DNA from: Nanopusillaceae archaeon
GTDB taxonomy: Archaea > Nanobdellota > Nanobdellia > Nanobdellales > Nanobdellaceae
Direction of reading: 5' to 3'
Assembly (NCBI GenBank): GCA_049974095.1
Contig: JBMFJD010000002.1
Span: 43,508-75,507, forward strand
DNA: 32,000 nt
Shown: positions 1 through 26,779 of the stretch, one piece after another
Layout: every line of letters starts with the position of its first letter
Numbering within the stretch: the stretch's first letter is position 1
Notes under the pieces: generated by a model
The model's database searches: none
What the model was told of the DNA's origin: nothing
What the model saw: the letters and a program-made list of their open reading frames with translations, nothing else
Program-made: the position numbers and the translations under genes

Positions 1-216
1 ATTTTTTATATTTTCATTTAAAACTTGTCCAGCTTTTCCTACAAAAGGTTTTCCTTGTATATCCTCATCTCTTCCTGGTGCTTCACCAATAAATAATATT
101 TTAGAATTTGGATTACCATCTCCAGGTACATAATTTTTCTTAAATTGATATAAAGGACATCTTTTACATTTAAGTATCTCTTCATTTAATTCATTTATTT
201 CCTCATTTTTATTCAT
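1..216 (-). CDS. udg: Uracil-DNA glycosylase, family 4 (first 72 codons; the rest lies beyond the left window edge)
   Basis: Minus-strand ATG at 216-214. Translation MNKNEEINELNEEILKCKRCPLYQFKKNYVPGDGNPNSKILFIGEAPGRDEDIQGKPFVGKAGQVLNENIKN stays open to position 1. CxxC, GEAPG and PFVGxAG are N-terminal hallmarks of family-4 (Fe-S, thermostable type) UDGs. It is absent from the ORF track because the window edge truncates it. Confidence 0.8.
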   Translation of the reverse strand, partial: MNKNEEINELNEEILKCKRCPLYQFKKNYVPGDGNPNSKILFIGEAPGRDEDIQGKPFVGKAGQVLNENIKN

Positions 217-251
217 TGATAATATATAAAAATAATTTTTATTTTATTTTA

Positions 252-1073
252 ATGTTTGCTCATGCACAAGGAGAATTTGAAAAATCAAAATGGATAATTG
301 TAGGAATTCCATCAGAAATCGGTAGTTTATCTCATATAAAAAACTATTTAGAAGGACCTGAAGCAATTAGAGATGCTTCATATAGAATTTTTTCTCCAAT
401 ATTTGGAAAAATAAATATGGAAGAAATATATGATTATGGAGATATAGATTTAGAAGATATAAAAGATTTAAGTAAAGTTTATGAGAAAATATATAATGAA
501 GTAAAGAAAATATATAGGAAAGATAAAAAATATATTTTTTTAGGAGGAGATCATTCAATTACATATCCAATATTAAAAATAATAAAAGAAAATTGGGAAG
601 ATTTTTATTTATTATATTTTGATGCTCATCCAGATATCCATCCAGATCCATATCCAAATTATCAAAGTTTTATTTATCATTTAATTAAAGAAGGATATTT
701 GGATCCAAAGAAAATAATATATGTAGGAATATCAAATTTATCATTTGAAGAAAGAAATATAATTGAAGAATGGAAAATAAAATATTATAATCCATTAAAT
801 ACTTGGGATAATATAAAAGAAATATCAAAAGAAATATCTGAAATTTTATATAATAAAAATGTTTATATTTCAATTGATATTGATGTATTTGAAAATGGAT
901 GTGGACATTGGTTAGAAGGTTTTGGAATAAGACCATATCATTATTTTAAAATTATTAGTGAATTAAATATTAATTTAATTGGATTTGATTTATTAGAATT
1001 ATTCTCTAATGAAGTATGTGACAATTTAGCTGCAAAAATTATAATAGAAACAATATCTATTTTTAATAAATAG
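252..1073 (+). CDS. speB: Agmatinase-like ureohydrolase (arginase/agmatinase family)
   Basis: The ORF track gives 216..1073. I prefer the ATG at 252 (MFAHAQGEF...) because a start at 216 would abut the divergent UDG start and leave no promoter space. Ureohydrolase metal-site motifs GGDHSITYP, FDAHPD and SIDIDV are present, though the region after the third motif is divergent. Agmatinase rather than arginase is inferred from pdaD in the same window. Confidence 0.72.
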   Translation: MFAHAQGEFEKSKWIIVGIPSEIGSLSHIKNYLEGPEAIRDASYRIFSPIFGKINMEEIYDYGDIDLEDIKDLSKVYEKIYNEVKKIYRKDKKYIFLGGDHSITYPILKIIKENWEDFYLLYFDAHPDIHPDPYPNYQSFIYHLIKEGYLDPKKIIYVGISNLSFEERNIIEEWKIKYYNPLNTWDNIKEISKEISEILYNKNVYISIDIDVFENGCGHWLEGFGIRPYHYFKIISELNINLIGFDLLELFSNEVCDNLAAKIIIETISIFNK

Positions 1074-2106
1074 TATTTCCATATGTAATATGTAAACATA
1101 ATATAGATAGACCAAGAATTCCAAATATTAATAAATTAATTGTAAAAATTTGAATGGAGAGAATTATATTTGTTGTATAATAAAAGAAAATAAAATTAAG
1201 AAAAGAAATAAATAAAATAAATATACCCGAAATTATACCCAGATTTATTTTATTTTTATCTGGAAAATTATGATATAGATAAGAATGGATAGCAATAAAA
1301 AATAAGAAAATAAAGAAATTAATATTTTGGAGTAAATATATTATTGAATTTTTTATAATAAATAAAAGTACAGTAAAAAATATATATAAAATAAGAAATA
1401 AAAATGGAAAATACATTGTAAAATTCTCTTTTTTATTTTCAAATACTTCTTTAATTATAATTATTATAGGAATTTCTAAAAAAGAGAATAATCCTGCTAT
1501 CATAATAAAAAATATATTAATAGAGAAGATAGATAAAATAAATTGGAGAGAAATTAAGAAAAAAATTAATAGAAAAATATAATCTTTATATTTTTCAATA
1601 GAATTTAATTTATATAAATAATAAATTTTCTTATCATTTAAATTAAGCAAAAAGATTAATATAGATAATAAAAATAAGGAAAAAAGATTGATATATTTTA
1701 AATAAAAAATAATTGTTGAATAAAAATAGATTATGAATAAAAAAATTATCTGTTTTCTATTTATAGATAGTTTATTTTCTCCAAAGAAATTTCCAATAAA
1801 ATAAAATAAAAGAAAAAATGATAGAACATAGGAAAAATATTTAAATAATATATTATTAAAATTTAGAAAAAATAATTGGATTATTATTATAATGTATGAG
1901 ATTTTTATCATATTTATTTTAGTATAATTAATAAAAAAGTATAAAATAATAGAATAAAATATAAAGAAAACTAAATAAAAATAAAAATATGGATTACTAA
2001 TATAGAATGATAAGATAAATATTGATAAAATAATATAAATTATGTATAATTCAATATTGAAATATTTATTTTTATCAATTATCCTCTCTATAAAAGATTC
2101 ATTCAT
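1063..2106 (-). CDS. Polytopic membrane protein, paralog A of an in-window pair (function unknown); last gene of the surface cluster
   Basis: 347 aa, almost entirely hydrophobic (about 10 TM spans by eye), 1 Cys. Full-length paralog of 4026..5189. Shared blocks: YTKxNxIKIxYIxIIxQ, KLNxIxKYKxYIFxLI, (K/R)ENFTxYF, IHxxLYxxxPDxxKxxLGI. The 31-nt upstream spacer has a TATA-like box at 2130..2137, 23 nt from the ATG. Confidence 0.6.
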   Translation of the reverse strand: MNESFIERIIDKNKYFNIELYIIYIILSIFILSFYISNPYFYFYLVFFIFYSIILYFFINYTKINMIKISYIIIIIQLFFLNFNNILFKYFSYVLSFFLLFYFIGNFFGENKLSINRKQIIFLFIIYFYSTIIFYLKYINLFSLFLLSILIFLLNLNDKKIYYLYKLNSIEKYKDYIFLLIFFLISLQFILSIFSINIFFIMIAGLFSFLEIPIIIIIKEVFENKKENFTMYFPFLFLILYIFFTVLLFIIKNSIIYLLQNINFFIFLFFIAIHSYLYHNFPDKNKINLGIISGIFILFISFLNFIFFYYTTNIILSIQIFTINLLIFGILGLSILCLHITYGNTIY

Positions 2107-2137
2107 AATAAATTTATATTTGGATATTAATATAAAA

Positions 2138-2788
2138 TTATGCTATTCTTATTTCATTTTCTCCAACTCTTTCCAAATATACATTTACAGATTTATACAA
2201 TGTAATATTATTTACAAAATAACAAGGTAAAATATTACATATAACTTGTCCATTATAATTTGTTGTACATATTTCATTTCCAGAAATATTCGTTGGAAAT
2301 AGAAATATAAAATATTGATGAGCAAATGTTTGATTTTCTAAACAAAAAATATATACAAAATAATAGAAATCTGAATAGAAGTTTTTGCAAATTATAATAT
2401 TAATATAATTTAATGTAAAATTTATAGATATGGGATAAGATATTTTTTCACAATTTCCGATAAAATTTAATATTCCAAAAGAATAGTTTCCAACATATGC
2501 TCTAAATGGATATGGAAATATTGCACATGTTGGTAAAGAATTTTGGTAAAAAATACTAAAATATTCTAGTTTATCTGTAGTTGTATAATATATAGGATAA
2601 CTTTGATATCCCAAACAATTTGGAGAAAATAGATCATATAATATATCTTGAGAATAAGAAAATGTATTTTTTTGAGCATAATTATATAGATTTATTGAAG
2701 AAAAAATACCAGTAATTATTATTATTCCGACTAAAAATAATACAATTAATATTGTTATAAATGTAATAGAAAATTGATTTTTTATCAT
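2138..2788 (-). CDS. Secreted/pilin-like protein with K-N-Q N-terminus, 8 Cys
   Basis: The ORF track gives 2138..2797 (MQSMIKNQ...). The internal ATG at 2788 forms an ATGA stop/start overlap with the upstream gene (plus-strand tcat 2785..2788), as at four other junctions of this cluster. That start gives MIKNQFSITFITILIVLFLVGIIIITGIF: a basic residue, N-Q, then about 23 hydrophobic residues. There are 8 Cys and several N-x-S/T sequons. Confidence 0.6.
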   Translation of the reverse strand: MIKNQFSITFITILIVLFLVGIIIITGIFSSINLYNYAQKNTFSYSQDILYDLFSPNCLGYQSYPIYYTTTDKLEYFSIFYQNSLPTCAIFPYPFRAYVGNYSFGILNFIGNCEKISYPISINFTLNYINIIICKNFYSDFYYFVYIFCLENQTFAHQYFIFLFPTNISGNEICTTNYNGQVICNILPCYFVNNITLYKSVNVYLERVGENEIRIA

Positions 2789-4026
2789 TGATTGCAATAT
2801 GTATTTACTTGTATTTGAGATGGGCAGATTACTCCTTCAGCACAGTTTAAATTACATCCACACTGAACATTTATCCAACATACATAACATTGTGCTGGTA
2901 TGGATTCATAGTATGTAAATTCTATAGTTTTAGTATTATTTTCTTTGGAAATAATTTGAGATGTTCCACATCCTTCTTGTGAATTACAAGAATTTTGAGC
3001 ATTTGTTAAATTACAAGTTAATGGCAAAGGAGTTATTATTTCATTATTTGTTGTATTAATTTGATATTCGCATTGATATTCACATATTTTATATGCATAT
3101 TGAGTAACATTCTGATAATATACTACAGAACTAATATATATTGATTGTGGTTTTGTTTTTCCTAAAAAATATACATTATATTGCGTATCTTCGCAATATA
3201 ATCCTATAATACAGGCTATACCTTGAGGATATTGGCAAACTGTATTACATGTAGCATATGGTAAATCACATTGATATTTTGTTATACTTTCATTGCATTT
3301 TATATATGGATTATTTGACATTTGTTCAAATATTTGAGCACATGTATTTTGAGGACTTTTTCCTTCTAATGCATTTATACAATCTTGTAAGGAACATTGA
3401 GAAAAAACACCAGAAATAGAAAACGAATAAGATAAGTTATATAAATAAAATGCAGGATTGTTTGTTATATTTACAGAAATATTAAATGGAATATAAGATC
3501 CAGAGCTATTACTTGTTGTTATTATAGTTAATCCATTAGCTTGTATTGGGAAATAATAATTGTATTCTCCTGAATTAATCTCGCTACAATTTCCAATTAT
3601 TGATGCATTATAATTATTTGTAAAATTAACTGTTATACTATATGGATAATAAAAATTTAAAGCTTGTAAATTTGTTAATCCATAAGAAATAACTGATTCA
3701 TAATTTATTGTTAATAGATTATTATAATAATTTAATGCTTGTTGACATGAAGGGGGTAAATTGCATCCCTCTGGTACAGAAGCCCAAAAGGTATCATTCC
3801 ATGAAGTTACTCCAGCAAGATACGAACTACTATATCCTTGTTGAATTAAAGATGTATATAAATAACCTAAAAAATAATTTGAAAGAGTTATTGAAGATGT
3901 ATATCTTACAAAAACCTGGTTTTGTTTGTATTGAAATGAAAGAGAATAAAATGTTAATAATATTACAATTATTATTAAAGCCAAAAATAGAATTGTATAT
4001 ATAATTTCTGCCTGACTTTTCATCAT
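2785..4026 (-). CDS. Large cysteine-rich secreted protein with pilin-like N-terminus (MMKSQ + hydrophobic helix), 24 Cys
   Basis: 413 aa. N-terminus MMKSQAEIIYTILFLALIIIVILLTFYSL. I count 24 Cys, clustered in the C-terminal half (e.g. QCYVCWINVQCGCNLNCAEGVICPSQ), and many N-x-S/T sequons. The start overlaps the upstream stop (TAATG, plus-strand catta 4024..4028). I recognise no family. Confidence 0.65.
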   Translation of the reverse strand: MMKSQAEIIYTILFLALIIIVILLTFYSLSFQYKQNQVFVRYTSSITLSNYFLGYLYTSLIQQGYSSSYLAGVTSWNDTFWASVPEGCNLPPSCQQALNYYNNLLTINYESVISYGLTNLQALNFYYPYSITVNFTNNYNASIIGNCSEINSGEYNYYFPIQANGLTIITTSNSSGSYIPFNISVNITNNPAFYLYNLSYSFSISGVFSQCSLQDCINALEGKSPQNTCAQIFEQMSNNPYIKCNESITKYQCDLPYATCNTVCQYPQGIACIIGLYCEDTQYNVYFLGKTKPQSIYISSVVYYQNVTQYAYKICEYQCEYQINTTNNEIITPLPLTCNLTNAQNSCNSQEGCGTSQIISKENNTKTIEFTYYESIPAQCYVCWINVQCGCNLNCAEGVICPSQIQVNTYCNQ

Positions 4027-5189
4027 TATATTATTGAATGAAAATATAAAAATATTAATATTAAAACTGTCATCACAATACCATGTATTATTGATAAAAT
4101 TAGACTAATATTTGGAATATAAAATAGCGGTACAATAAAACTATCCATATTTGGAGGAATACCAAATATTGCAGATTCTAATAATTCTCCTAAAACTAAT
4201 TGAATAAGAAATATTATACCTATTGTTATTCCTAAAGATTTTTTTAAAGGATCCGGATATTTTTTATATAAACCATAATGAATTCCTGAAAAAAACATAA
4301 ATAAAGAAATTAAAATTCTAGTATGAAAGAAAAATGAATAATAATCTTGAAATAGAAAATAAAACTCTCCAAAAATAATTATTGAAGATAATAAAATAAG
4401 TAAGAAATATATTGTAAAATTTTCTCTTTTATTTTTTATTTTTCTATATATTAGATAGAATATGATGAATTCAAATATAGAAATAAATACTAAAGAAAAA
4501 TCGAGATAGAATTTCCAGTTATTAGAAATTAAAAATATGTGTAAATAATAAAGAGATAAAATAATTTGAATTAATATTATAAAATAGATTAACATGAATA
4601 TGTATTTTTTATATTTATCTATTTCATTTAATTTTATTATACTTAATTCATTTTTATCAATTGCATCTGTATAAAATAAAAGAGGAATTATTAAAAGAAA
4701 AGAAATAAAATAAATTAAAGAAAATAGATAGATATGAGACATTGAGAAATTATATATGTAAGCAATATATCTTGGTATTTTAACATCGATATCTCCATAA
4801 ATCATTTGATAGATTGTTTCAAGAAAATAAACAAAAAAATAATAAATTATTGACGATATATATAATATCAATGATCTTTTTGAGAAATTAAATCTCTTTT
4901 CTACGGAATAATATCCTAAAAGAAAATAGAATATATAAAAATATATATAATTTGTAAATAAGCCTCCTGAAAAATCTTTAAAATAAAATAAACTAAAAAT
5001 CTGGAAAATTATTAAGATATATATTATCTTTATTGTATTACTTTTAGTATACTTTAATAAGAAAAATAAAATAAACAAATATATAGAGCCAAACAAAATA
5101 ATATAATAGTTGAAACTTGATAATATAGAAAATAATAAAAATAAAAGCAAAAATATTGAAAAAAGAACTTTATTTATATTTTTTACCAT
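4026..5189 (-). CDS. Polytopic membrane protein, paralog B of the in-window pair (function unknown)
   Basis: 387 aa, hydrophobic throughout, no Cys. Aligns end to end with 1063..2106 (blocks listed there). Carries an extra roughly 40-aa segment containing YGDIDVKIP that paralog A lacks. Its start overlaps the upstream gene by 7 nt (5183..5189). Confidence 0.6.
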   Translation of the reverse strand: MVKNINKVLFSIFLLLFLLFSILSSFNYYIILFGSIYLFILFFLLKYTKSNTIKIIYILIIFQIFSLFYFKDFSGGLFTNYIYFYIFYFLLGYYSVEKRFNFSKRSLILYISSIIYYFFVYFLETIYQMIYGDIDVKIPRYIAYIYNFSMSHIYLFSLIYFISFLLIIPLLFYTDAIDKNELSIIKLNEIDKYKKYIFMLIYFIILIQIILSLYYLHIFLISNNWKFYLDFSLVFISIFEFIIFYLIYRKIKNKRENFTIYFLLILLSSIIIFGEFYFLFQDYYSFFFHTRILISLFMFFSGIHYGLYKKYPDPLKKSLGITIGIIFLIQLVLGELLESAIFGIPPNMDSFIVPLFYIPNISLILSIIHGIVMTVLILIFLYFHSII

Positions 5190-6727
5190 ACTCTTAATAT
5201 AGCAACAAGATATCCACCAAGAAATCCTGTATCTGTTGGATAATAGAAATCAAATACATATGTATTTACTCCTGGTGGGACTGGATATCCTAAACTAATA
5301 TATTTCCCATTTTCACGAAATAAAAATGCATTTAATTCTAGTTCTTTTCCATCTTTTGTTATACAATAAACTCTAGCCATTGCTATTCCATTGCTTCCAT
5401 AATGAGGATCCCAATATGCAGCAGATATTTTTATATATGGTACATTTGGATCCCTATCATCTATAGCCCATTTTGTTATATTAAATTGATATATTCCCCA
5501 AGAATTTATATTATCTCCTATTAAATATACTAAGGGACATTGTTTTCCAACAATAGTTCCATTTATATTTTCTACATTATCGTATACTCCAGTGGGACAT
5601 GTTACATTACTGTAATTACAATCCGGATCTGCTGCTAAAAATATATAATCTGGTTGTCCTGTTTTGTTTACAAAAGCAATATATAATCTAATTACCTCAT
5701 GCCATGGATAGTCTATAAATAACTGTTGACAATCCGATGGTATATAAACTTTTCCTGTATAAAAAGAACCTACAATAACATATTTATTGTAAACATCATT
5801 AAAACTTATTAATCCTAAATAATATGCTAGTAAATTAATATTTGTTGCAGTTTTATATGTTGGAGGATTTACATAATAGTGTCCTGTATTTTCATTTACG
5901 CATCCATAATTATTGCATCCTTGGAAAAAATAAGGTAAGTTACTACTTGGAGAAACAGTTACCATGGATCCTTCATCTAAATCTTGAAACAGAGGCCATT
6001 CACCATTTGGACAGAATACAGAAGCCGGTGTAAAATTTTCTTGAGGAAATATTTTAGAAAGAGGTTCACATATATCTTTTTGTACTGAAGAATATGTACA
6101 AGTAGCAGGAGAATATAAACCATTTAATCCCCAATCAGGACATGAAAATTGCTGATGAAAAGGAGCAGTGGCATTTACCCATCCAGCTCCAGTTAAATTT
6201 AATATATTTCCATTTGGTGCTATAACAGTTTCTTGATAATTACTTACATAAAAATACGTATAATTCCATTCATACCATTTAAATTCATTATTATCATTTG
6301 GAGGATTTATTTGACAACTATCCCAATCTCCTAAATTTCCTACAAATATAAACATATGAACAATCCATCCTGTTACCGGTGGTACAAAATATACTGTTAA
6401 GTTCCATCTATTTCCATAAATACTCTCAAAATATTGTATAATATCTTGTGATATATTTGTGCAGATATTTTGATTTATACAATATGTATCATTTCCTGAT
6501 GTACTCCAATATGATAATAAGAATGCATAGGATAAATTAACTATAGGATCATTTATATAAGGTAATAAAATTACACTATTTTGTATTGTTGAAGAATATT
6601 GCTCTATTGATGTTATATTTTGCTTTTTTATTGAATAATTATAAGAAATTAAAAAGTATAGAATTAAAGATAAAATTATTATTGCAGAAATAATTATATA
6701 AAAAATAAAATTTATTTGATTTCTCAT
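5183..6727 (-). CDS. Large secreted protein with pilin-like N-terminus (MRNQ + hydrophobic helix), 14 Cys
   Basis: 514 aa. N-terminus MRNQINFIFYIIISAIIILSLILYFLISY. The first codons share an 18-nt string (AATCAAATAAATTTTATT) with the 7717 gene (MKNQINFINF). 14 Cys, many sequons, Trp/Tyr-rich ectodomain. ATGA overlap with the upstream gene at 6724..6727. Confidence 0.65.
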   Translation of the reverse strand: MRNQINFIFYIIISAIIILSLILYFLISYNYSIKKQNITSIEQYSSTIQNSVILLPYINDPIVNLSYAFLLSYWSTSGNDTYCINQNICTNISQDIIQYFESIYGNRWNLTVYFVPPVTGWIVHMFIFVGNLGDWDSCQINPPNDNNEFKWYEWNYTYFYVSNYQETVIAPNGNILNLTGAGWVNATAPFHQQFSCPDWGLNGLYSPATCTYSSVQKDICEPLSKIFPQENFTPASVFCPNGEWPLFQDLDEGSMVTVSPSSNLPYFFQGCNNYGCVNENTGHYYVNPPTYKTATNINLLAYYLGLISFNDVYNKYVIVGSFYTGKVYIPSDCQQLFIDYPWHEVIRLYIAFVNKTGQPDYIFLAADPDCNYSNVTCPTGVYDNVENINGTIVGKQCPLVYLIGDNINSWGIYQFNITKWAIDDRDPNVPYIKISAAYWDPHYGSNGIAMARVYCITKDGKELELNAFLFRENGKYISLGYPVPPGVNTYVFDFYYPTDTGFLGGYLVAILRVW

Positions 6728-7251
6728 TTTAGTATGTATGTTATTAATTCTATTGCTACTATAGAAATTCCAATTATTAAATAATTGCTATAATTATTTT
6801 CATATAATTTTTGCATATTTTTATAATTTGTTAAATTTATTGTTGGAGGAATTGTTAGTGTAATATTAATAACATTTGTAGTATAATTTGCTGAAAATAT
6901 AATATCGTTTAATGCATTTATAGGTATTAAACTATATGGAGAAACAGCAGTTCCATTTGGGTATACACAATAATAAGTTTGGTAAGTAACATTGTGGTAG
7001 ATAGTTAAATTTAGAAAATATGTAGATAAATTAAAATGAGAACAAAAATTATATTGAACAGGAACATTTCCATTATAATAATCTATCGCATTAAATATTT
7101 TTCCATCTACAATACAATATTGTCCAGAAGAATTAACAAAATATGTTCCTCCACTATATTCACAAAATACTGCAAAAGGATTTCTTATTGAATAAATTTT
7201 ACTAAAAAATATTAGTAATAATAAAAATAAAAAATACTTTATTTTTTTCAT
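6724..7251 (-). CDS. DUF333-like 4-Cys surface protein with Sec-type signal peptide and C-terminal TM anchor
   Basis: 175 aa. N-terminus MKKIKYFLFLLLLIFFSKIYS looks like a Sec-type signal peptide. It is followed by IRNPFAVFCEYSGGTYFVNSSGQYCIVDGKIFNAIDYYNG, which matches from memory the DUF333/COG3042 pattern NPAxxYCxxxGGxxxxxxxGxxCxxxDGxxxxxWxxYxG. The C-terminus LIIGISIVAIELITYILK is a TM anchor. Paralog of 7714..8655. Confidence 0.6.
   Translation of the reverse strand: MKKIKYFLFLLLLIFFSKIYSIRNPFAVFCEYSGGTYFVNSSGQYCIVDGKIFNAIDYYNGNVPVQYNFCSHFNLSTYFLNLTIYHNVTYQTYYCVYPNGTAVSPYSLIPINALNDIIFSANYTTNVINITLTIPPTINLTNYKNMQKLYENNYSNYLIIGISIVAIELITYILK
7088..7154. repeat. 67-bp perfect repeat, copy 1 (inside the DUF333-like gene 6724..7251)
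   Basis: Identical to 8393..8459: gcattaaatatttttccatctacaatacaatattgtccagaagaattaacaaaatatgttcctccac. Identity extends a further 15 nt upstream across a single mismatch (7087 c vs 8392 t). Wider homology spans about 7031..7154 vs about 8336..8459. Confidence 0.9.
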
Positions 7252-7285
7252 TAAATTATTTTTCTTTAAAAATATATAAACATTA

Positions 7286-7717
7286 TTAGCCGGCTCCTCC
7301 CATTATATTTTGTATAAATTGCAAAGAAGGAGTTATGTATAAATTATTTCCATATTTTAATATATAAATTTCTGATGGATAGATTAAAAAAGATACATTT
7401 TCTTCATTATTATTTATCAAATATATTGTAGAATTATAAAAAATAACAGTATAATTATTTTCTTGATAATTTATTATTAATTCAGAATTATTTGAATATA
7501 AAATAATATCTTTTGGGACAGATAATTCAATATAGTAATTTCCATAAGATGTATAAATTGTATTTGCTAAGTTCTGTAAGTTTTGTAAAAATATCGTAAA
7601 TTCTTCTCTTTGCTGATTTTTTTGTAAATTCATTGAAAAAGAAAAATATATGCCAATAGCAATTCCAACAATTATTAATATTATTCCAAAATTAATAAAA
7701 TTTATTTGATTCTTCAT
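7286..7717 (-). CDS. Small pilin-like protein (MKNQ + hydrophobic helix), no Cys
   Basis: 143 aa. N-terminus MKNQINFINFGIILIIVGIAIGIYFSF, then a beta-rich, Asn/Tyr-rich domain, ending in GGAG. ATGA overlap with the upstream gene at 7714..7717. Confidence 0.6.
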   Translation of the reverse strand: MKNQINFINFGIILIIVGIAIGIYFSFSMNLQKNQQREEFTIFLQNLQNLANTIYTSYGNYYIELSVPKDIILYSNNSELIINYQENNYTVIFYNSTIYLINNNEENVSFLIYPSEIYILKYGNNLYITPSLQFIQNIMGGAG

Positions 7718-8655
7718 TTTAGATAAAATAACAATATTATTAATCCAATTATCATAACAGAAATTGTTATTATTGCAGGTATTATAAAGTTACTATTATT
7801 CATATTGTTATTTGTTAGATTTTCTTCATTTTTTATTATTTGTTGTACTAATGTATTATTTTGTTGTGTTTGATTTAAATAAATACATTGAAACATTCCA
7901 TAACAATTTACTTCTATTTTATTTGGTGGTGGACATTGTTTTTCAAATTCTTGATATAATTCTTCTAATGAATAATTCTGCGGACATAAGTACCAAGGAC
8001 TAAATGCGTTGCTATTGCATTTTCCGCATCCAACATATTCTCTATAAAATTCTATAGTTTGATTATAAGATCCAATATATAAATTTGGAGGAATATATGG
8101 GGGATTAAAGCATGGATATGGGATATTAGAACATTGAGAAGCTTCCCAAGGAGTACTTGGGCATTGTAATATATTTGAACAATTTGATTGACCAATTTCT
8201 ATAATATTTGAATTACTATTTAGATAATTTTCAAAGATAATATATGGTGAAATTAATGTTCCATTTGGATATTCACAATAGGATTCATATAAAGTAAAGT
8301 TTGATATATTTTCTTGTTTAATTACTAATGTTAAATTAAAATGAGAACAAAAAGAATATTGAGGTGGTACAAAATTATTATAATAATCTATTGCATTAAA
8401 TATTTTTCCATCTACAATACAATATTGTCCAGAAGAATTAACAAAATATGTTCCTCCACCAATTTGGCAATATTCTTTGTATATTTGCTGAGAAAAAGCA
8501 GGAAAAAATAGAAATATTAAAAATATTAAGAAGATTTTTTTAATCATTTTAAGAATAAGTTGCTTCTTGTATTGTAACCATATACTGTGAAAAGTTTTCC
8601 CATAAAGTGTAGGCAATTCATTGTAATATGGTATATATAATAATCCATTTTTCAT
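7714..8655 (-). CDS. DUF333-like, 14-Cys surface protein with C-terminal TM anchor (probable true start at 8547)
   Basis: The ORF is 313 aa. The internal ATG at 8547 gives MIKKIFLIFLIFLFFPAFSQQ, a Sec-type signal peptide parallel to that of the paralog at 6724..7251. It is followed by YCQIGGGTYFVNSSGQYCIVDGKIFNAIDYYNNFVPPQYSFCSHFNLT and then a Pro/Cys-rich extension (NCSNILQCPSTPWEASQCSNIPYPCFNPPYIPP). C-terminal anchor: FIIPAIITISVMIIGLIILLFYLK. Confidence 0.6.
   Translation of the reverse strand: MKNGLLYIPYYNELPTLYGKTFHSIWLQYKKQLILKMIKKIFLIFLIFLFFPAFSQQIYKEYCQIGGGTYFVNSSGQYCIVDGKIFNAIDYYNNFVPPQYSFCSHFNLTLVIKQENISNFTLYESYCEYPNGTLISPYIIFENYLNSNSNIIEIGQSNCSNILQCPSTPWEASQCSNIPYPCFNPPYIPPNLYIGSYNQTIEFYREYVGCGKCNSNAFSPWYLCPQNYSLEELYQEFEKQCPPPNKIEVNCYGMFQCIYLNQTQQNNTLVQQIIKNEENLTNNNMNNSNFIIPAIITISVMIIGLIILLFYLK
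8393..8459. repeat. 67-bp perfect repeat, copy 2 (inside the DUF333-like gene 7714..8655)
   Basis: See copy 1. Encodes GGTYFVNSSGQYCIVDGKIFNA in both paralogs. Confidence 0.9.
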
Positions 8656-8672
8656 ATAATATAGATATTCCT

Positions 8673-9443
8673 CTATATTAATTCATCCTGTATAGTTTCT
8701 CTGCTATTTCCTTCATTATCCTTTGCATTAATTACTATATTATATATACCTGCATTAATAGAGTTTGGTATACTAATTGTAGATGAAATTGTACAAGATG
8801 AAAAAGTTATACAAGATGTTTGATTAAGAGAACATGCAATTCCATTTGGTGATATGCATGAAAATGATATATTATATGGAGTATTTTGAGGTAGATTTTC
8901 TTGCGCAGTTATATATATACTTGTGGATCCTCCAGATTGCAATGTTATTAGAGAATTATTTGGATATAAATAAATAATTCCTTTTATACTATAAGTTTGC
9001 TGATAGTTTAGCTCTCCTAAACTTATTATAATACTGTTTGGAGAATTTTTTTCAATTATTAAAGGTAATACTTCATAATTTTTTCCATAAAATGATGTAT
9101 AATAAATTCCCGAAGTATAATATTGGATTAAATTATTTGTAGTATTTATATAAACTAAGCATGGAAATGAATAATTATAATATGTATTATATATATAACA
9201 TGTAACAGTATTTCCATTTGAAGAAACATAATTTAAATACTTATTTACTTTAAAATTGAGATAAATAGTAGTTCCATTATTTGAATAGCATACTTGTTGA
9301 ATAGTATTAAATAAATTTTGACATTCAGATATTTCAGTATAAATTTCTTCTGTTTGATAATTTATATTAGTAAATTTAAAATATAATAATAAAGATAAGC
9401 TAAAAACAATAATACTTATTATTATCCAAAACCATTTTTCCAT
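8673..9443 (-). CDS. N-terminally anchored surface protein with C-terminal Ig-like/adhesin-like domain, 8 Cys
   Basis: 256 aa. N-terminus MEKWFWIIISIIVFSLSLLLYF. The C-terminal roughly 75 aa (…ISFSCISPNGIACSLNQTSCITFSSCTISSTISIPNSINAGIYNIVINAKDNEGNS) has the xGxYxIxIxAxDxxGNS strand pattern common in Ig-like adhesin/S-layer domains. The upstream 32-nt spacer has a TATA-like box at 9466..9473. Confidence 0.55.
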   Translation of the reverse strand: MEKWFWIIISIIVFSLSLLLYFKFTNINYQTEEIYTEISECQNLFNTIQQVCYSNNGTTIYLNFKVNKYLNYVSSNGNTVTCYIYNTYYNYSFPCLVYINTTNNLIQYYTSGIYYTSFYGKNYEVLPLIIEKNSPNSIIISLGELNYQQTYSIKGIIYLYPNNSLITLQSGGSTSIYITAQENLPQNTPYNISFSCISPNGIACSLNQTSCITFSSCTISSTISIPNSINAGIYNIVINAKDNEGNSRETIQDELI

Positions 9444-9475
9444 ATTTTATCTATAAAATATTATGATATATAAAG

Positions 9476-9883
9476 CTATCCTTGTAATTGGATATATACA
9501 TATTCTCCAGTAGAGTAAACTAATATATAATCTCCAGAATTTATTGTATAATTGCAATTTTGCATAACAACACTAGGATTAATTTGATTTACTAAATTAA
9601 TTAAATCTTGACATGTAAAAGATTTTCCTTGATACGAAATTAGATAACATAATCCATTTTCTTTTTTTTCATAACAAGAAATTATATCCAAAGCTATAGT
9701 ATCAATTGACGATACATTTGTTTCAACAATAGTTTGCGTATTATTGTATTTAGGTAATGTATGATTAATAAAAGATGTTATATTTCCTTTAAAGTAATAT
9801 ATAATTCCAATTATTGTTAAAGTAACAATAATACCTATTATTATTAAAAACGTTAAGCTTACAGGCATTTCCTGATTTTTCAT
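9476..9883 (-). CDS. Small pilin-like protein (MKNQ + hydrophobic helix), 4 Cys
   Basis: 135 aa. N-terminus MKNQEMPVSLTFLIIIGIIVTLTIIGIIYYF. 4 Cys. Size and architecture are typical of a minor pilin. Confidence 0.6.
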   Translation of the reverse strand: MKNQEMPVSLTFLIIIGIIVTLTIIGIIYYFKGNITSFINHTLPKYNNTQTIVETNVSSIDTIALDIISCYEKKENGLCYLISYQGKSFTCQDLINLVNQINPSVVMQNCNYTINSGDYILVYSTGEYVYIQLQG

Positions 9884-9912
9884 ATTTTTATATAGTCCTT
9901 ATTATTTTATAT

Positions 9913-10392
9913 TTATTGCCATAAAATGATATTGCTATTATTATATATAATAAATAAACTATTGTATGGATAAATTATTTCATCATTATTCTTTAAATGG
10001 AATTCTAAATTATTAATATTGAATGTAGAGTAATTTTCAAGATAATTTGTTATATTTGTTAAATTTAAACTAATATTTTCATCTATATAGATATCATAAC
10101 AAATATTAAATAAAGTATTTTTGTCTATATTATTATAATAGCAATTTATTATAAATCCAGAGATATCAGAGATAATTTCATCCTCAGTTTGATTTGTAAA
10201 TATAATACTTATTGCTGATGGGTAATATTTTATACATGAAGGGGAAAATCCACCCTCAGAAATTAATGTTTTGCAGTAATATAATTGAGAATTTGCAAAA
10301 AATTTTGTATATACAATATCTAATATTACAAATACCGATATTATCGCAATAATTATAATAAATGTAGTATCTATTGCTATGTCAGTTTTCAT
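9913..10392 (-). CDS. Small pilin-like protein (MKTD + hydrophobic helix), 4 Cys
   Basis: 159 aa. N-terminus MKTDIAIDTTFIIIIAIISVFVILDIVY. 4 Cys. ATGA overlap with the upstream gene at 10389..10392. Confidence 0.55.
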   Translation of the reverse strand: MKTDIAIDTTFIIIIAIISVFVILDIVYTKFFANSQLYYCKTLISEGGFSPSCIKYYPSAISIIFTNQTEDEIISDISGFIINCYYNNIDKNTLFNICYDIYIDENISLNLTNITNYLENYSTFNINNLEFHLKNNDEIIYPYNSLFIIYNNSNIILWQ

Positions 10393-10676
10393 ATATAACT
10401 AATATTACCTTCATAAATATATATTATTCTATATCCTGCGGGAATTGTTATATTATTGATTGTACAATTTTCTGTTAAATATATTTTTTCATCAATTATT
10501 TTATAATAACTTTCATTATATAATTTATATAATTGATTGCAATTTAATGTTATTACATTATTTTCACCATTTATATTTTTATTAACTTTGTAAATATATG
10601 AAAATGCAAAAATAGATGCTACAACAATTAGTATAAAACTTATTATTGCCCAATAAATATATTGTTGGTTTTTCAT
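10389..10676 (-). CDS. Very small pilin-like protein (MKNQ + hydrophobic helix), 2 Cys
   Basis: 95 aa. N-terminus MKNQQYIYWAIISFILIVVASIFAFSYIY. 2 Cys. ATGA overlap with the platform gene at 10673..10676. Confidence 0.55.
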   Translation of the reverse strand: MKNQQYIYWAIISFILIVVASIFAFSYIYKVNKNINGENNVITLNCNQLYKLYNESYYKIIDEKIYLTENCTINNITIPAGYRIIYIYEGNISYI

Positions 10677-12643
10677 AATTGTATTGTAGTTGGTAAATAT
10701 GGGCCAAATATAGTATATACTAACATTATACCCAATAATGAAAATATTACATAAAATATCGTTCCTGTTATTAAATTTCTTCCTACGTAATATGAAATCA
10801 TTGTACTATCAAATCCATATTTTATTCCTGCAGTCATAAAAGAAGTAATAGCTACATATTCTATAAAAAATATTCCTATTATTGCTTCAAAATATGTTGG
10901 AGGAATAAGGTTATAGAGATTAAATGTATTTACAATAAAATTGTATAAGCTAAATGATCCTCCAATACCCAACGATTGGCTAATCATTTGAAAAAAATAT
11001 GCAATTGCAAATAATATTGATACAATAGCATTATTAAATACTGTTACTAATGAAGAAATAAATGGAATTAGATCTCTAGATGTTATATCTAGCATATTTA
11101 CTATTTCATTCAATATTTTTCTTACATTATATCTTATATTCATAACATTTTCTAAATTATATGATATATTATATGTAATCTGAGACAAAACTTGTGGACC
11201 TTTTGGCAGAGAAAGAACTATTAATTGCATTGTTTCTCCAATTAATTTTGATGGATAATAGTTTAAAGATCCAATTTTTCTATCAAAAATTGATGTGACT
11301 AGATCATATCCCTTTCTTAAATTATATAATGTAATTTTTAGAAATCTTTCCATTACTCCAGATGACTTTATTATTTTATAGTTATCATATGTTTTTTGTA
11401 TTACAGCCTCCATTGGATATCCATCTTCTAATAATGATGCAAATTCATATGTAACAATTGGAAATTCATTTTCTATTTCTTCTATTTGATTTATTCTTTT
11501 TACTTTTTGGAAAGATACTAAATAGTAATATGAACCAATTCCTAATCCCAAACCCAAAGGTAACATTAATGTTAAAAATGAATATATTAATGCTCTATCC
11601 TGATAAACAATATTTAAATAATCACTAAGATCCCCCTGAGGTAAAAACAAGATTTTTAATGATAAAGCAATTAAATGATATATTCCTAATATTGCAATAG
11701 ATCCCAATATAATTGAAACAATTATTGCTGGAATTTCTTTATTTCCAATTTTAAATTTTCCAGGAGAAGGTAAATCTTTAGATAAAGATAAATCTGGAAC
11801 TGAAAATGCAAATGGATTTCTAGATAATAGATTTTGTATAAATAAGAATGTTATTACAGGTAAAATAATTATATAACTAAATGCAATAAAATAAAAACTT
11901 ACAGTATTTAATAGAAATATCGATAATATTGGTAATATTATTAAACTAATTAGCGGCATCATAACTAAAAAAGAAACAATAACTGTAGCAGGTTGCTTTA
12001 ATTCATCTACATAATTTTGAGATCTTTCTAATGATTTCTTTAATATCCAATTTAATATTCTATCTACTAATTTGTTTATTTCTTCAACAGAGTTCTTATA
12101 TTTTATATTTATTAAATGAGTCATTGCATATACAAAATCTGGACTCAAGTAAAACCATCTATATTGATAAAATTGAATTGCAGACTCTATATCTTTAAAC
12201 CTATTTGTTTCTAAATCATAAATTAGTTTTTTGAAATCATCGGCAATTACACCTTTCATATAATATGCAACATATTGTATTGCGCCTTCTAAATTTGGAT
12301 TCCTTTTAATATATAAGGATAAATATAAAATTATCCAAACAATTTCAGAAGTTGCTTGTATTTTTACAATTTGTGTATATAATATTGGATAGTACATTAA
12401 GTATAAATCCAGTATTATTAATGATATTAATAAAGAAAATGCTAGTTGAAAAGAAACAAAGCTTAATATAAAAAATATTACTATAGAAAATATTAATAAT
12501 GTTATTGTGGAGGAAAATATTTTGTTAGGATCTGTATTTAATTTATTTAACCATAAATGAAATGCATATAATTTATATATTGGTTGAGGGGCTCTTAATT
12601 TAATTAATGCAAAATTATTATAAAAATTTTCAAAAAAAGACAT
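10673..12643 (-). CDS. FlaJ/TadC/PilC-like type IV filament membrane platform protein (two T2SSF-like repeats)
   Basis: 656 aa, no Cys. Architecture is TM block, helical cytoplasmic domain (AIQYVAYYMKGVIADDFKKLIYDL…AIQFYQ…), TM block, second cytoplasmic domain (EFPIVTYEFASLLEDGYPMEAVIQK…ITLYNLRKGYDLVTSIF), TM block. This is the duplicated T2SSF arrangement of archaeal FlaJ/TadC proteins. The assignment rests on pattern recognition only; no HMM search was possible. Confidence 0.5.
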   Translation of the reverse strand: MSFFENFYNNFALIKLRAPQPIYKLYAFHLWLNKLNTDPNKIFSSTITLLIFSIVIFFILSFVSFQLAFSLLISLIILDLYLMYYPILYTQIVKIQATSEIVWIILYLSLYIKRNPNLEGAIQYVAYYMKGVIADDFKKLIYDLETNRFKDIESAIQFYQYRWFYLSPDFVYAMTHLINIKYKNSVEEINKLVDRILNWILKKSLERSQNYVDELKQPATVIVSFLVMMPLISLIILPILSIFLLNTVSFYFIAFSYIIILPVITFLFIQNLLSRNPFAFSVPDLSLSKDLPSPGKFKIGNKEIPAIIVSIILGSIAILGIYHLIALSLKILFLPQGDLSDYLNIVYQDRALIYSFLTLMLPLGLGLGIGSYYYLVSFQKVKRINQIEEIENEFPIVTYEFASLLEDGYPMEAVIQKTYDNYKIIKSSGVMERFLKITLYNLRKGYDLVTSIFDRKIGSLNYYPSKLIGETMQLIVLSLPKGPQVLSQITYNISYNLENVMNIRYNVRKILNEIVNMLDITSRDLIPFISSLVTVFNNAIVSILFAIAYFFQMISQSLGIGGSFSLYNFIVNTFNLYNLIPPTYFEAIIGIFFIEYVAITSFMTAGIKYGFDSTMISYYVGRNLITGTIFYVIFSLLGIMLVYTIFGPYLPTTIQL

Positions 12644-12650
12644 TTTAAAT

Positions 12651-13406
12651 TTATGTTAGACCGTTTAGTTGCTGATATGGTATCTGTAGTAGGAATTCAC
12701 ATAGTGGTATTCCTAAGCTATTATTTACTATATTTAATTTTGAGCAATTTCCTGTTACATATAATGTTTGATTTATTACTTGTAAACTTAAATTACATCC
12801 ATTATTTGTATTATAATAATTTAATACTTTTAATAACGCTACAAATACCTGATCTGTAATCCATGTTGGTATCATTCCTGAACATTGTTGTGGTCCTGGA
12901 TATAATATTTGATTTTGAGAAGGTGCAGAGAAATATATATTTGCTGTTTGTGTTTGTACATTAAATGATGTTAATGGAGAGTAATTACCAAATACTAATG
13001 ATGTAGCTTTCTCTGGAGATTTTTGTAAAGTATTAATATAATATTGACATTCAATATACATACAATCTAATGGGGTTACAGGATATCCTTCATATGTACA
13101 TTGATTATTCGATCCCCCATATAATTGCAAAATTACACTACAAGGTACAGAATTTGCACATAAATAATATCCTGGTTGTGGTTCTATAATACCTTGTCCT
13201 ATTGTTTCATATTTTGAGCAAAAAAATGATATACTCTGACATTCACTTATGCAATCGCTCACCGCTTGTTGTATTTCTGTATTAGATATTTTTGAAATAT
13301 TTGAAGATTGTTGCTGGAATAATTTTATTACTATTACTGCTACTACTAACATAATTAATATTACGAAAATCAATTCAACAGCCATTTCTATAGATCTCTT
13401 TTTCAT
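12651..13406 (-). CDS. Pilin-like secreted protein (MKKRS + IEMAVELIFVIL helix), 12 Cys; first gene of the cluster
   Basis: 251 aa. N-terminus MKKRSIEMAVELIFVILIMLVVAVIVIKLF has a basic leader, a small residue, then a hydrophobic helix, as in archaeal class III signal peptides. 12 Cys. TTATAAAT box at 13428..13435 (minus strand), 21 nt upstream of the ATG. Confidence 0.6.
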   Translation of the reverse strand: MKKRSIEMAVELIFVILIMLVVAVIVIKLFQQQSSNISKISNTEIQQAVSDCISECQSISFFCSKYETIGQGIIEPQPGYYLCANSVPCSVILQLYGGSNNQCTYEGYPVTPLDCMYIECQYYINTLQKSPEKATSLVFGNYSPLTSFNVQTQTANIYFSAPSQNQILYPGPQQCSGMIPTWITDQVFVALLKVLNYYNTNNGCNLSLQVINQTLYVTGNCSKLNIVNNSLGIPLCEFLLQIPYQQLNGLT

Positions 13407-13427: not shown

Positions 13428-13435
13428 ATTTATAA
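13428..13435 (-). promoter_or_regulatory. TATA box (TTATAAAT) of the surface-cluster promoter; leaderless geometry
   Basis: The minus strand reads TTATAAAT, followed by 21 nt and then the ATG at 13406. It sits in the 31-nt spacer after the DUF371 stop. Confidence 0.45.
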
Positions 13436-22892: not shown

Positions 22893-23702
22893 ATGGCATT
22901 AGATTTTATTGTAGGATTAGCATACTATATTGGTTTTTTGGTAATATCAATATTAGTTGGAGCATTAGTAGGATGGATAGTATATAAGATAGTACAATAT
23001 GTATTAAAAAGATATTTAGATAAAGCATATGAAAAACTAAAAGAAACATTTACAAAAGTGCCATCAATAGATGTAGGGGCATTGGTATCATATACAATTG
23101 GAGCATTAGTAGGAATATATGTATTTGAGGGAGTTATGGGAATGTTACCATCAATAATATCATCAACACAGTTTTCATATATTAATTATTTATATTATTT
23201 AACATTAACTATTGCATCATATATATTATCAATAGCAGCTATTGTTTTAATAATTGCAGCAGGTGTAATATTCTCAATATTCTTTACATCATATCTATAT
23301 ATATTAGTAGAGGGATATAATGAAGATATTGCAAATCTATTGAAAGTATTATTATTCTTAGCATTAGTCTGGTTAATTACAATATATTCATTAAATATAT
23401 TAAACTTAGGACAAACATTATTCGAAAATATAATGGGGGTATTTGTAATATTATCAGTTGGATTAATTGTAATGAGATATATAACAGAAAATGTACATGA
23501 TAATGAATATTATAAGAGTGTAAAACCATTTGTACAAATATTTATAATGTCAATATTCATAATTAGTTCATTATCAATATTATTGCTAGGTTATTCAACA
23601 GTATCAGCAGAATTGCAAAACATATTTGCATGGGGCTTTGTAATATTATTTGTATTAGCTTTGTTACCATTTGTTGTAAAAGCTATAAAAGAATCCCTAT
23701 AG
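22893..23702 (+). CDS. Multi-pass membrane protein of unknown function, inserted between rps12 and rps7
   Basis: 269 aa with about 7 hydrophobic spans. It has its own TATA-like box, TTTATATA at 22864..22871, 21 nt upstream of the ATG. I recognise no family. Confidence 0.6.
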   Translation: MALDFIVGLAYYIGFLVISILVGALVGWIVYKIVQYVLKRYLDKAYEKLKETFTKVPSIDVGALVSYTIGALVGIYVFEGVMGMLPSIISSTQFSYINYLYYLTLTIASYILSIAAIVLIIAAGVIFSIFFTSYLYILVEGYNEDIANLLKVLLFLALVWLITIYSLNILNLGQTLFENIMGVFVILSVGLIVMRYITENVHDNEYYKSVKPFVQIFIMSIFIISSLSILLLGYSTVSAELQNIFAWGFVILFVLALLPFVVKAIKESL

Positions 23703-24373: not shown

Positions 24374-24862
24374 ATGAGCGGTCGGAGTCACCTTCCAAGA
24401 AAAGTATTTTTTACAAAAGGAGTAGGAATAGCAGACGATCCTTTATTAAGTTTTGAGTTTGCGTTAAGAGATGCAAAAATTGAGAAATTTAATTTAGTTC
24501 CAGTATCTAGTATTGCTCCACCAAATATAAAGATTGTTGATATAAATGAGGGATTAAAGGAATTAAAAGCAGGAGAAGTAGTTTTTACTGTATTAGGAAG
24601 ATTTACATCAAATGAAGAAGGAAAACTAATATATTCATCTGTTGGGGTTGCAATACCAAAAGATAAAAAATTAAATGGATATTTTACAGAATATCATGGA
24701 TATTATAGCGGAAAGGAAGAAGGATATGCAAAAGATAAAGCATTGTTTATGCTAGAATCATTATATAATAATATTGAAATAGATAAAAACTTTGAAATAT
24801 TTAATAAAGCAGAAGTAGAAAAATATACAACAGTTGTTTCTGCAGTAGTTTTTATTTTTTAA
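24374..24862 (+). CDS. pdaD: Pyruvoyl-dependent arginine decarboxylase proenzyme
   Basis: 162 aa. PRKVFFTKGVGIADDPLLSFEFALRDAKIEKFNLVPVSSIAPP matches PdaD. It includes the Ser-Ser self-cleavage site (S45-S46, nt 24506..24511) that generates the pyruvoyl group. Confidence 0.9.
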   Translation: MSGRSHLPRKVFFTKGVGIADDPLLSFEFALRDAKIEKFNLVPVSSIAPPNIKIVDINEGLKELKAGEVVFTVLGRFTSNEEGKLIYSSVGVAIPKDKKLNGYFTEYHGYYSGKEEGYAKDKALFMLESLYNNIEIDKNFEIFNKAEVEKYTTVVSAVVFIF

Positions 24863-26159: not shown

Positions 26160-26779
26160 TTAAATTTCTATTCCTAAATATTCTTCTAGTAGTTCTAATG
26201 CTTTATCTTCATATTTTTTATATTTTTCAGTATAAATATTAAAAATATCTATTAATAATTCTTTATTATACCCTGTTTTTTCTATTATATTTTTAATTTC
26301 TTTTATATCTTCAATATCCTTTTGTTCTCTTCTTCTTAAATATGTAAAAATTTTATCAACAATTAACCATTCAATTTTTGCAACATTTAGTTCAATATAT
26401 TTTCCATTTAATTTAATTTTTATTTTATTATATGGAACATCGTAATCTCTAAATAATATACTTACAGGTAGTTTATTTTTTTCTTCTATTTTAATTCCAT
26501 CATATCTAAACAATTTTCCCTTTGATATTTTTCCTTCCATTGGTTTTCTAAATAGAATACTTTCTAAGTCAGATTGATATTTATTATTTATTGTTAAATC
26601 TATATATCAAAAGTAGATCTATCTTGATAATATTTAGTATTGGATAAATATGAATATATTGCAACAGCAATTCCCCCTATTATAGAATAAGGATAATCAT
26701 CGAATATATCTGATATATCTTCAAGAGTCCTTACAGTGTTTTTGTCTAATAATTTATAGCTACTTACCTGTGGTGACAT
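26160..26779 (-). pseudogene. Nucleotidyltransferase-fold protein (AbiEii/DUF1814-like pattern) disrupted by a 2-nt frameshift
   Basis: The minus-strand ATG at 26779 gives MSPQVSSYKLLDKNTVRTLEDISDIFDDYPYSIIGGIAVAIYSYLSNTKYYQDRSTFDI, then TAG at 26602..26600. The frame of ORF 26160..26540 extends upstream as YIDLTINNKYQSDLESILFRKPMEGK… after a TGA. Removing one TA from the run tatatat (26601..26607) fuses them to …GGIAVAIY…DRSTFDIDLTI…, restoring a GG…R-x-T-x-D-I-D NTase motif in a roughly 205-aa protein. Confidence 0.6.

Follow-up and report, generated by a model that had tools for sequence, protein, structure and literature searches.

What kind of structure is encoded by a block of 14 co-directional genes, all on the minus strand at positions 1063-13406, of a 32,000-nucleotide (nt) stretch of contig JBMFJD010000002.1 from a Nanopusillaceae archaeon? 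The genes (g01 to g14) of this stretch, referred to as a whole as the window (G+C content ~ 22%), encode nine pilin-like proteins (g01, g03-g06, g08, g10, g12 and g13), two proteins resembling DUF333 (g07 and g09), two polytopic paralogues (g11 and g14) and a single platform protein (g02), which is the same set that a first-pass annotation, made from the bare sequence, had listed. Judged from sequence and gene context, it seems that the locus probably specifies the membrane and extracellular half of a highly divergent, Nanopusillaceae-specific archaeal type IV filament system, i.e. one resembling type IV pili (T4P).

The 14 open reading frames (ORFs) were recovered with every coordinate of the first-pass annotation, and each junction that it had described proved exact. 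Start and stop codons overlap as ATGA (minus strand) at 2785-2788, 6724-6727, 7714-7717, 10389-10392 and 10673-10676, as TAATG at 4024-4028, and as a 7-nt overlap (ATGGTAA, minus strand) at 5183-5189; counting also the 7-nt gap between g01 and g02, eight junctions among the 14 genes overlap or measure at most 7 nt. The five other junctions are spacers of 29-34 nt, each with a TTTATA-like box ~ 22-31 nt before the ATG. A TATA-like box also precedes g01 (Table 1), where it is found in the form TTTATAAA/TTTATATA at the same distance in 9/9 compared genomes. It is probably an archaeal TATA box from which a first transcription unit would start with a leaderless or near-leaderless mRNA, and its conservation supports position 13406 as the real upstream boundary of the locus. 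Beyond that boundary follow DUF371 and RimK-like ATP-grasp genes on the strand of the locus, and then the divergent rpoH-rpoB-rpoA operon. The arrangement is identical in the NCBI and JGI versions of the contig, although these assemblies are probably not independent.

Conservation of the gene order in relatives, which the first-pass annotation had put forward as a check, was found in eight related Nanopusillaceae genomes: four Nanopusillus metagenome-assembled genomes (MAGs), Nanobsidianus stetteri Nst1, the complete genome of the cultured strain YN1, and the more divergent L009 and L010. In all of these the locus lies between rpoH/RimK/DUF371 and arginase. Its proteins are 38-86% identical to those of the window, against 81-91% for the flanking housekeeping proteins, which indicates that the locus evolves faster than its surroundings. 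The most stable part is the core of g01-g05 (62-86% identical to the YN1 orthologues, without frameshifts), while the middle (g06-g09) is rearranged between genera. Among the related loci searched, the full locus was seen only in Nanopusillaceae; a partial homologue of g01 is present in the human-associated Ca. Nanopusillus massiliensis.

The platform is the component that relates the locus to type IV filament machinery. A direct scan of g02 (identical to ACP5GJ_01000) gave no Pfam or NCBIfam match, even at E ≤ 1, yet its homologues do match the T2SSF family (PF00482, cut-off 25.2 bits). Full-length homologues were found in Woesearchaeota-type DPANN archaea (25-28% identity, E ~ 1e-57), and PF00482 was matched by six of the 17 aligned homologues, with the best score for P0012 (40.8 bits, E = 2.6e-10, two PF00482 stretches), while P0009 reached 24.2 bits. 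The two stretches fall on residues 106-236 and 399-512 of g02, each ahead of hydrophobic segments, and a two-repeat layout is usual for the T2SSF family. When the profile of the g02 family was compared with the PDB, the top match was the cytoplasmic domain of GspF/EpsF (2vma), at a marginal E of 0.07. Through this transitive homology g02 can with high confidence be taken as a very divergent T2SSF/PilC/GspF/TadC/FlaJ platform, so that the FlaJ/TadC-like protein recognised in the first pass does have T2SSF homology, on both repeats.

The surroundings of the distant g02 homologues point the same way. In two Woesearchaeota-type loci (L007 and L008), where the platform is homologous over its full length, the gene directly follows that of a T2SSE ATPase of 758-760 amino acids (aa), and small genes with canonical class III signals, such as MNNKKG↓QSLSMNTIIIAIL (the arrow separates the -1 and +1 residues), lie around it. 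At L007:12261-17923 and L008:46-1888 there are about ten small genes with hydrophobic N-termini, some with KKG↓Q/E/L/F signals and three of them paralogues with the N-terminal motif VLPFLLVFT..FA.LEKT; none matches any family model. These operons differ from the locus described here in their adjacent ATPase, in their canonical KKG↓Q or KKG↓E pilins, and in an A24 peptidase gene, which in L007 lies 9 kb away; they contain no detectable homologue of the other 13 proteins.

Although g02 belongs to the same superfamily as the archaellum protein FlaJ, it is not the archaellum FlaJ. No FlaH, FlaI, FlaF, FlaG or archaellin genes are present among the 14 products or in the flanks, and YN1 encodes its archaellum genes (FlaBDEHIJF) separately from the locus (PMC11420986), with the g02 orthologue, YN1_4460, annotated as hypothetical.

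The second line of evidence is formed by the N-termini of the nine pilin-like products, all of which begin with a few basic residues and continue into a hydrophobic helix of ~ 20 residues. That of g01 is the most canonical: its orthologues share the start MK[KR]R[G/A/S]↓[IVL]DMAVQLIFVIIIMLVVAVIVIKLF, residues 8-33 are near-invariant in 22 sequences, and IMG names the protein 'type II secretory pathway pseudopilin PulG'. For g05 the IMG name is 'UPF0333 family', the archaeal class III signal peptide family. Most of the other N-termini read M-K-x-Q-[IFVA], with Gln following K-x in six of the nine window proteins. A canonical MKG↓EIDLYF is kept by the g03 orthologue of L009, which suggests that the K-x-Q signals descend from canonical sites. 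In seven of the nine pilin-like families the N-terminal 32 residues are conserved as much as, or more than, the rest of the protein (e.g. 80% versus 68% for g01, and 69% versus 60% for g04), whereas for g07 conservation is lower in the Sec signal than in the mature protein. An AlphaFold2 (AF2) model of g01, built with 22 homologues (predicted local distance difference test score (pLDDT) of 74.6), consists of a 36-residue N-terminal helix (residues 2-37) and an alpha/beta head.

Beyond their N-termini, the exported proteins have the character of extracellular proteins. All ten Cys-containing exported products have an even number of Cys residues (12, 2, 4, 4, 8, 14, 4, 14, 24 and 8), and together the exported proteins contain 85 N-x-S/T sequons, compared to the 43 expected from their own composition. 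The resulting density is 3.2 sequons per 100 aa, while 13 cytoplasmic proteins encoded in the window have 0.48 per 100 aa. The largest of the pilin-like proteins, g10, is conserved in 9/9 genomes (46-69% identity) and has no match in Pfam, NCBIfam or a PDB profile search; for g12 a profile search against PDB sequences came back empty and no relative of known function was detected.

The most informative component, a pilin-tethered protease, was missed by the first-pass annotation. In all eight relatives a gene in the variable middle part specifies a protein of 436-579 aa that joins a pilin-like N-terminal module to a papain C1 domain (PF00112, E from 4.6e-11 to 7.6e-25), in which the QGxCGxCWA, His and NxWG motifs are conserved and aligned with the catalytic residues of papain (whose landmark sequence served for orientation only). 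The module is that of g06 in YN1, and that of g08 in Nanopusillus, L009 and L010. In the window the PF00112 domain is absent: g06 aligns with residues 1-243 of the 579-aa YN1 protein at 62.5% identity (a DUF4625-like match, with E = 2.3e-4, is below threshold), the ~ 900 bp encoding YN1 residues 244-542, i.e. the papain domain, have been deleted, and what remains of the protease C-terminus is a relic recognisable by tblastn (59% identity over 27 aa, E = 4e-5). This relic makes up the first 36 codons of a 313-aa ORF (7714-8655), which is thereby over-extended; the true start of g07 is at 8547, giving 277 aa, as called by both NCBI and JGI. No paper that pairs papain-type proteases with these lineages was found in the literature search. 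The start regions of g10 (6690-6732, MRNQINFI) and g08 (7680-7722, MKNQINFI), taken with the upstream stop that they overlap, show 81% DNA identity over 43 nt, which hints at duplication or exchange of N-terminal modules and agrees with the fusion of the protease to different modules in different genera.

The remaining products are less easily placed. The motif NP.AVYCEY.GG.Y of g07 and g09 resembles DUF333, and the C-terminal transmembrane (TM) segments that the first pass had assigned to this pair are present. The family match itself is below threshold: g09 scores 22.6 bits against DUF333 (PF03891; E = 1.3e-4), under the Pfam gathering threshold of 25 bits, and four of the 11 members of the g07/g09 family match at E ≤ 0.01, all under the cut-off. 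The two genes share a patch of 145 nt (7027-7171 and 8332-8476) with 87% nucleotide identity, while the proteins are 43% identical overall. The same patch is shared at the protein level by the YN1 paralogues, which suggests gene conversion within each genome.

The polytopic proteins g11 and g14 form an orphan family with 12 matches among 1.84 billion representative proteins, and with no Pfam or NCBIfam match; only three of the genomes, namely that of the window, YN1 and one Nanopusillus MAG, have g14. The AF2 model of g11 shows ~ 12 helices at moderate confidence (pLDDT 61.6, predicted template modelling score (pTM) 0.65), and a Foldseek search of it against the PDB returned nothing at E < 1. 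Public gene calls shorten g11 to 259 aa and g14 to 195 aa, but the orthologues conserve the full N-termini of the 387- and 347-aa forms. Several identities were considered for this pair and rejected. An alignment of nine members contains two invariant His but no invariant Asp, which, together with the lack of a family or fold match, disfavours a role as the missing A24 prepilin peptidase, a family defined by two catalytic Asp in TM helices of which the second lies in GxGD, and there is no motif evidence for a CPBP/Rce1-like, archaeosortase-like or DsbB/VKOR-like protein (g11 has no Cys).

Table 1. Coordinates and properties of the features of the locus and its borders (positions within the window; arrows separate the -1 and +1 residues)
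Feature	Position	Strand	Size and composition	Description	Basis or remark
TATA-like box TTATAAAT	13428..13435	-		probable promoter element of g01	22-29 nt upstream of g01 ATG
g01	12651..13406	-	251 aa, 12 Cys	most canonical pilin-like protein, MKKRS↓IEMAVELIFVILIMLVVAVIVIKLF; candidate major subunit	class III-like N-terminus
g02	10673..12643	-	656 aa, 0 Cys	polytopic, predicted T2SSF-family platform	transitive homology
g03	10389..10676	-	95 aa, 2 Cys	small pilin-like, MKNQQYIYWAIISFILIVVA	start overlaps platform stop (ATGA)
g04	9913..10392	-	159 aa, 4 Cys	small pilin-like, MKTDIAIDTTFIIIIAIISVF	start overlaps g03 stop
g05	9476..9883	-	135 aa, 4 Cys	small pilin-like, MKNQEMPVSLTFLIIIGIIV	N-terminal signature
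g06	8673..9443	-	256 aa, 8 Cys	hydrophobic N-terminal module and Ig-like C-terminal region	shortened counterpart of YN1 579-aa protein
Protease relic	8584..8664	-		relic of papain-family protease C-terminus (YN1 residues 543-569)	frame differs from g06
g07	7714..8547	-	277 aa (corrected start), 14 Cys, 12 sequons	DUF333-like Cys motif, Cys-rich domain	Sec-type signal, C-terminal TM anchor
g08	7286..7717	-	143 aa, 0 Cys	pilin-like module, MKNQINFINFGIILIIVG	
g09	6724..7251	-	175 aa, 4 Cys, 9 sequons	shorter DUF333-like paralogue of g07	Sec-type signal, C-terminal TM
g10	5183..6727	-	514 aa, 14 Cys, 15 sequons	large pilin-like exported protein, MRNQINFIFYIIISAIIIL	candidate adhesin/effector
g11	4026..5189	-	387 aa, 0 Cys	polytopic, ~ 12 helices	lineage-restricted orphan family
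g12	2785..4026	-	413 aa, 24 Cys, 13 sequons	large pilin-like exported protein, MMKSQAEIIYTILFLALIII	Ser at -1, inside G/A/S set
g13	2138..2788	-	216 aa (from ATG at 2788), 8 Cys	pilin-like exported protein, MIKNQFSITFITILIV	
g14	1063..2106	-	347 aa, one Cys	second polytopic paralogue	34% identity to g11
Arginase-family gene	216-1073	+			flank of locus

Taken as a type IV filament system, the locus might work as follows. The exported proteins would enter the membrane by their N-terminal hydrophobic helix, leaving glycosylated, disulfide-bonded heads outside. A PilB/FlaI-family ATPase encoded elsewhere would energise g02, which would extract the subunits and polymerise them via their conserved N-terminal helices into a surface filament or a short pseudopilus. 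The likely main subunit is g01, in view of its canonical class III site, of a helix more conserved than any other, of a conserved putative promoter of its own and of a position 7 nt from the platform gene. Likely minor or priming pilins are g03-g05, given their small size, good conservation and translational coupling to the platform. The large, fast-evolving g06, g08, g10, g12 and g13 would then be modules displayed on or with the filament, which in the relatives include the intact papain-family protease, the domain lost in this genome. For g07 and g09 a role as C-terminally anchored accessory surface proteins may be envisaged, and g11 and g14 could be lineage-specific membrane components.

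A number of observations weigh against such a system. A class III signal comprises a short charged n-region, K/R at -2, G/A/S at -1 and a hydrophobic helix of ~ 20 residues. In the window all of these features are found in g01 (KRS↓I) and g12 (KS↓Q), the only two with a -1 residue from the G/A/S set, whereas g03, g05, g08, g10 and g13 read K-N-Q, g04 reads K-T-D and g06 is without a recognisable site; among the orthologues G, A, S, N, L, E, Y and V occur at this position. As every known prepilin peptidase is considered to require G/A/S at -1 (PMC4371748), most of the pilin-like proteins are only putatively cleaved. Moreover, no pilin-like product matches any Pfam or NCBIfam pilin model (the NCBIfam matches of g01 to the N-termini of ComGF and GspK are insignificant, with E between 0.05 and 0.1), the g01 head, helix-rich in the model, matched no solved pilin when Foldseek was run against the PDB (none at E < 1), the g01 profile likewise found no pilin in the PDB, and the internal repeat of g02 is only marginal by hhalign (E = 0.084). 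With Pfam and NCBIfam none of the 14 products gave a direct match above threshold. The family scans have low power here and cannot exclude pilins, because a canonical Woesearchaeal KKG↓Q pilin is also left unmatched by Pfam and NCBIfam. The pilin-like reading of the first pass is made reasonable by the canonical class III site of g01 and by the IMG names, but is not fully supported, given most of the -1 residues and the fold predicted for the g01 head.

Also unfavourable is the lack of two canonical partners, which the first-pass annotation had already reported for the window and which Pfam and NCBIfam scans extend: neither a PilB/FlaI-type (T2SSE) ATPase nor an A24 prepilin peptidase was found, either in the window or in the adjoining 10 kb on its start side (the contig ends ~ 0.7 kb past the far edge of the FtsZ gene, near the window end). 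A 269-aa polytopic membrane protein without family assignment, encoded at 22893-23702 (+), downstream of the RNA polymerase operon and flanked by the ribosomal protein genes S12 and S7, was considered as a possible A24 peptidase but is not an obvious one, as it has no GxGD and no Pfam match. In a 2016 census of archaeal type IV pili, nanoarchaeal ATPases were found while their cognate pilins were not identifiable, and in two nanoarchaeal genomes the A24 prepilin peptidase was not recognised (PMC4858521), the latter of which adds to the same side of the balance.

Among known systems, the Epd pili of Methanococcus maripaludis (EpdA-E, EpdJ/K/L, EppA) are alike in combining several small pilins with a TadC/PilC-like platform. 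The EppA substrates carry KGQ[VIL] sites in which the +1 Gln is obligatory (PMC4371748), which M-K-x-Q-[IFVA] closely resembles, and the Epd subunits are N-glycosylated, to which the sequon-rich exported proteins described here are comparable. The differences are nevertheless considerable, since the -1 residue here is mostly Asn instead of Gly, the locus contains no EppA or other A24 peptidase and no ATPase, its pilin-like proteins are Cys-rich and up to 514 aa long, polytopic orphans and DUF333-like anchored proteins are added, and no sequence homology was detected beyond the platform family. With the bacterial minor-pilin and tip-adhesin sets (GspH-K; PilVWX-PilY1) it is the concept that is shared, i.e. 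small subunits prime the filament while large ones sit at its tip; there is no homology, and here it would operate in an archaeal monoderm without secretin.

The most serious alternative, although an unlikely one, is that the locus serves surface assembly instead of building a pilus: the platform and the small pilin-like proteins would form a short pseudopilus that inserts large glycoproteins with class III signals into a fixed envelope structure, or arranges them there; in this lineage the structure may be the attachment organelle's layered cone or its portal. A precedent, compared via the literature only, is the Sulfolobus bindosome (Bas), where large surface proteins with pilin signals are handled by a PilC-like platform and small pilin-like proteins (PMC4371748), the substrate-binding proteins of Sulfolobales bearing class III signals that are processed by PibD (PMC4371748). 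The Pfam and NCBIfam scans, however, gave no homology to Bas and no substrate-binding domains. With 216-514 aa, five of the nine pilin-like proteins are large, which makes them more cargo-like than subunit-like, whereas the strongly conserved helix of g01 is more typical of a polymerising subunit. Both the C-terminally anchored g07 and g09 and the polytopic g11 and g14 would suit a membrane-fixed structure, and the cone of YN1 and YN4 is built of a repeating monomer of which the identity is open (PMC11420986; 10.64898/2026.06.04.730037), but none of the products was identified as a cone subunit.

It is considerably less probable still that the locus does not encode one machine at all, but is a syntenic island in which surface glycoproteins, either signal-anchored or Sec-secreted, are encoded beside a TadC-like gene, in which the K-x-Q proteins would be uncleaved anchors that never polymerise. 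While the several internal promoter-like spacers suggest separate transcription units, start/stop overlaps tie the platform to g03-g04, and g09 through g13 together, and the gene order is kept across genera although the proteins diverge to 38-70% identity, compared to 81-91% for the flanking housekeeping genes. Uncleaved anchors would fit the -1 residues (mostly outside G/A/S), the lack of an A24 peptidase nearby and its reported absence in nanoarchaea (PMC4858521), as well as the lack of any pilin family or fold match; on the other hand, conservation like that of the g01 helix (near-invariant over 26 residues) would not be expected of simple anchors, and the distant platform homologues sit inside canonical pilin operons. 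Finally, that a system functional in relatives is decaying in this genome, where it may no longer build a working structure, is the least probable explanation of all, because in spite of the lost papain-domain stretch of ~ 900 bp with its out-of-frame relic, and of a middle part rearranged between genera, none of the 14 ORFs is disrupted and their lengths and Cys patterns are conserved, g01-g05 remain 62-86% identical to YN1 without frameshifts, and the same arrangement is seen in the NCBI and JGI contig versions (with the probable dependence of these assemblies noted above).

Reading the locus as a divergent type IV filament system does not make the existence of such a system new, since FlaJ/TadC homologues had previously been noted in Nanoarchaeota, in single-cell genomes with high non-synonymous diversity (PMC6142677) and, as FlaJ/TadC homologues or 'type IV pili genes', in PMC4858521 and the YN4 preprint (10.64898/2026.06.04.730037). 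To call the system uncharacterised, as in the first pass, was in this respect an overstatement. What is new is the description of the locus, the atypical K-x-Q subunits, the pilin-protease fusion and the orphan membrane proteins, for none of which an earlier description was found in the literature search.

Elsewhere in the window, a tyrosine recombinase with Phage_integrase and SAM-like N-terminal domains, possibly of the XerA type (25144-25980, -), adjoins a weak AbiEii-like nucleotidyltransferase toxin fragment (26160-26540, -), the two being placed between PvlArgDC and the L10/L1/L11 genes; they may be a mobile-element remnant or a toxin-antitoxin module. The arginase/agmatinase-family gene that flanks the locus (Table 1) and a pyruvoyl-dependent arginine decarboxylase (24374-24862, +) are both kept in a very reduced genome, which together suggest a route to polyamines (putrescine). 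On the same contig, ~ 4 kb outside the window on its start side (L011:14751-19031), a 1426-aa protein without Pfam match is encoded beside a Lon-type protease. Rfam and tRNA scans of the window returned only a tRNA-Lys (31396-31468).

All cultured Nanopusillaceae are obligate ectosymbionts, and this is the context in which the locus has to be viewed. YN1, YN4 and Nanobdella aerobiophila attach to their hosts via a cone, a portal and an intercellular filament of 6.6-8 nm, the protein identity of which has explicitly been left open (PMC11420986, PMC11104419, 10.64898/2026.06.04.730037), and a survey of N. aerobiophila surface proteins left out those with unrecognised signal peptides (10.1101/2023.10.27.564410). 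As the composition of the filament and cone is open and the locus is found only in Nanopusillaceae, a role in host attachment or contact is plausible. A far more specific proposal, which we regard as improbable, if somewhat less so than an island of independent surface proteins, is that the filament and portal of the attachment organelle of Nanobdellota (with the filament of 6.6-8 nm that passes through the cone into the host) would be products of the locus, with lineage-specific K-N-Q signals handled without a canonical A24 peptidase, possibly by g11 and g14, and with a papain-type protease, carried to the tip by one pilin-like subunit, that opens the host S-layer in most members, the window genome then being a natural protease-less variant.

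For the biology of these archaea, the divergent filament system proposed here would mean that the locus supplies about ten conserved candidate subunits with an atypical signal, which is likely to have been missed by standard predictors, as well as a pilin-tethered papain-like protease (in the relatives) and two orphan membrane proteins. With 12 kb devoted to it, the locus would be a concrete candidate for the host-directed filament of a tiny symbiont, whose composition thereby becomes testable in existing co-cultures, and the evolution of class III-like signals after the apparent loss of the canonical peptidase becomes testable as well.

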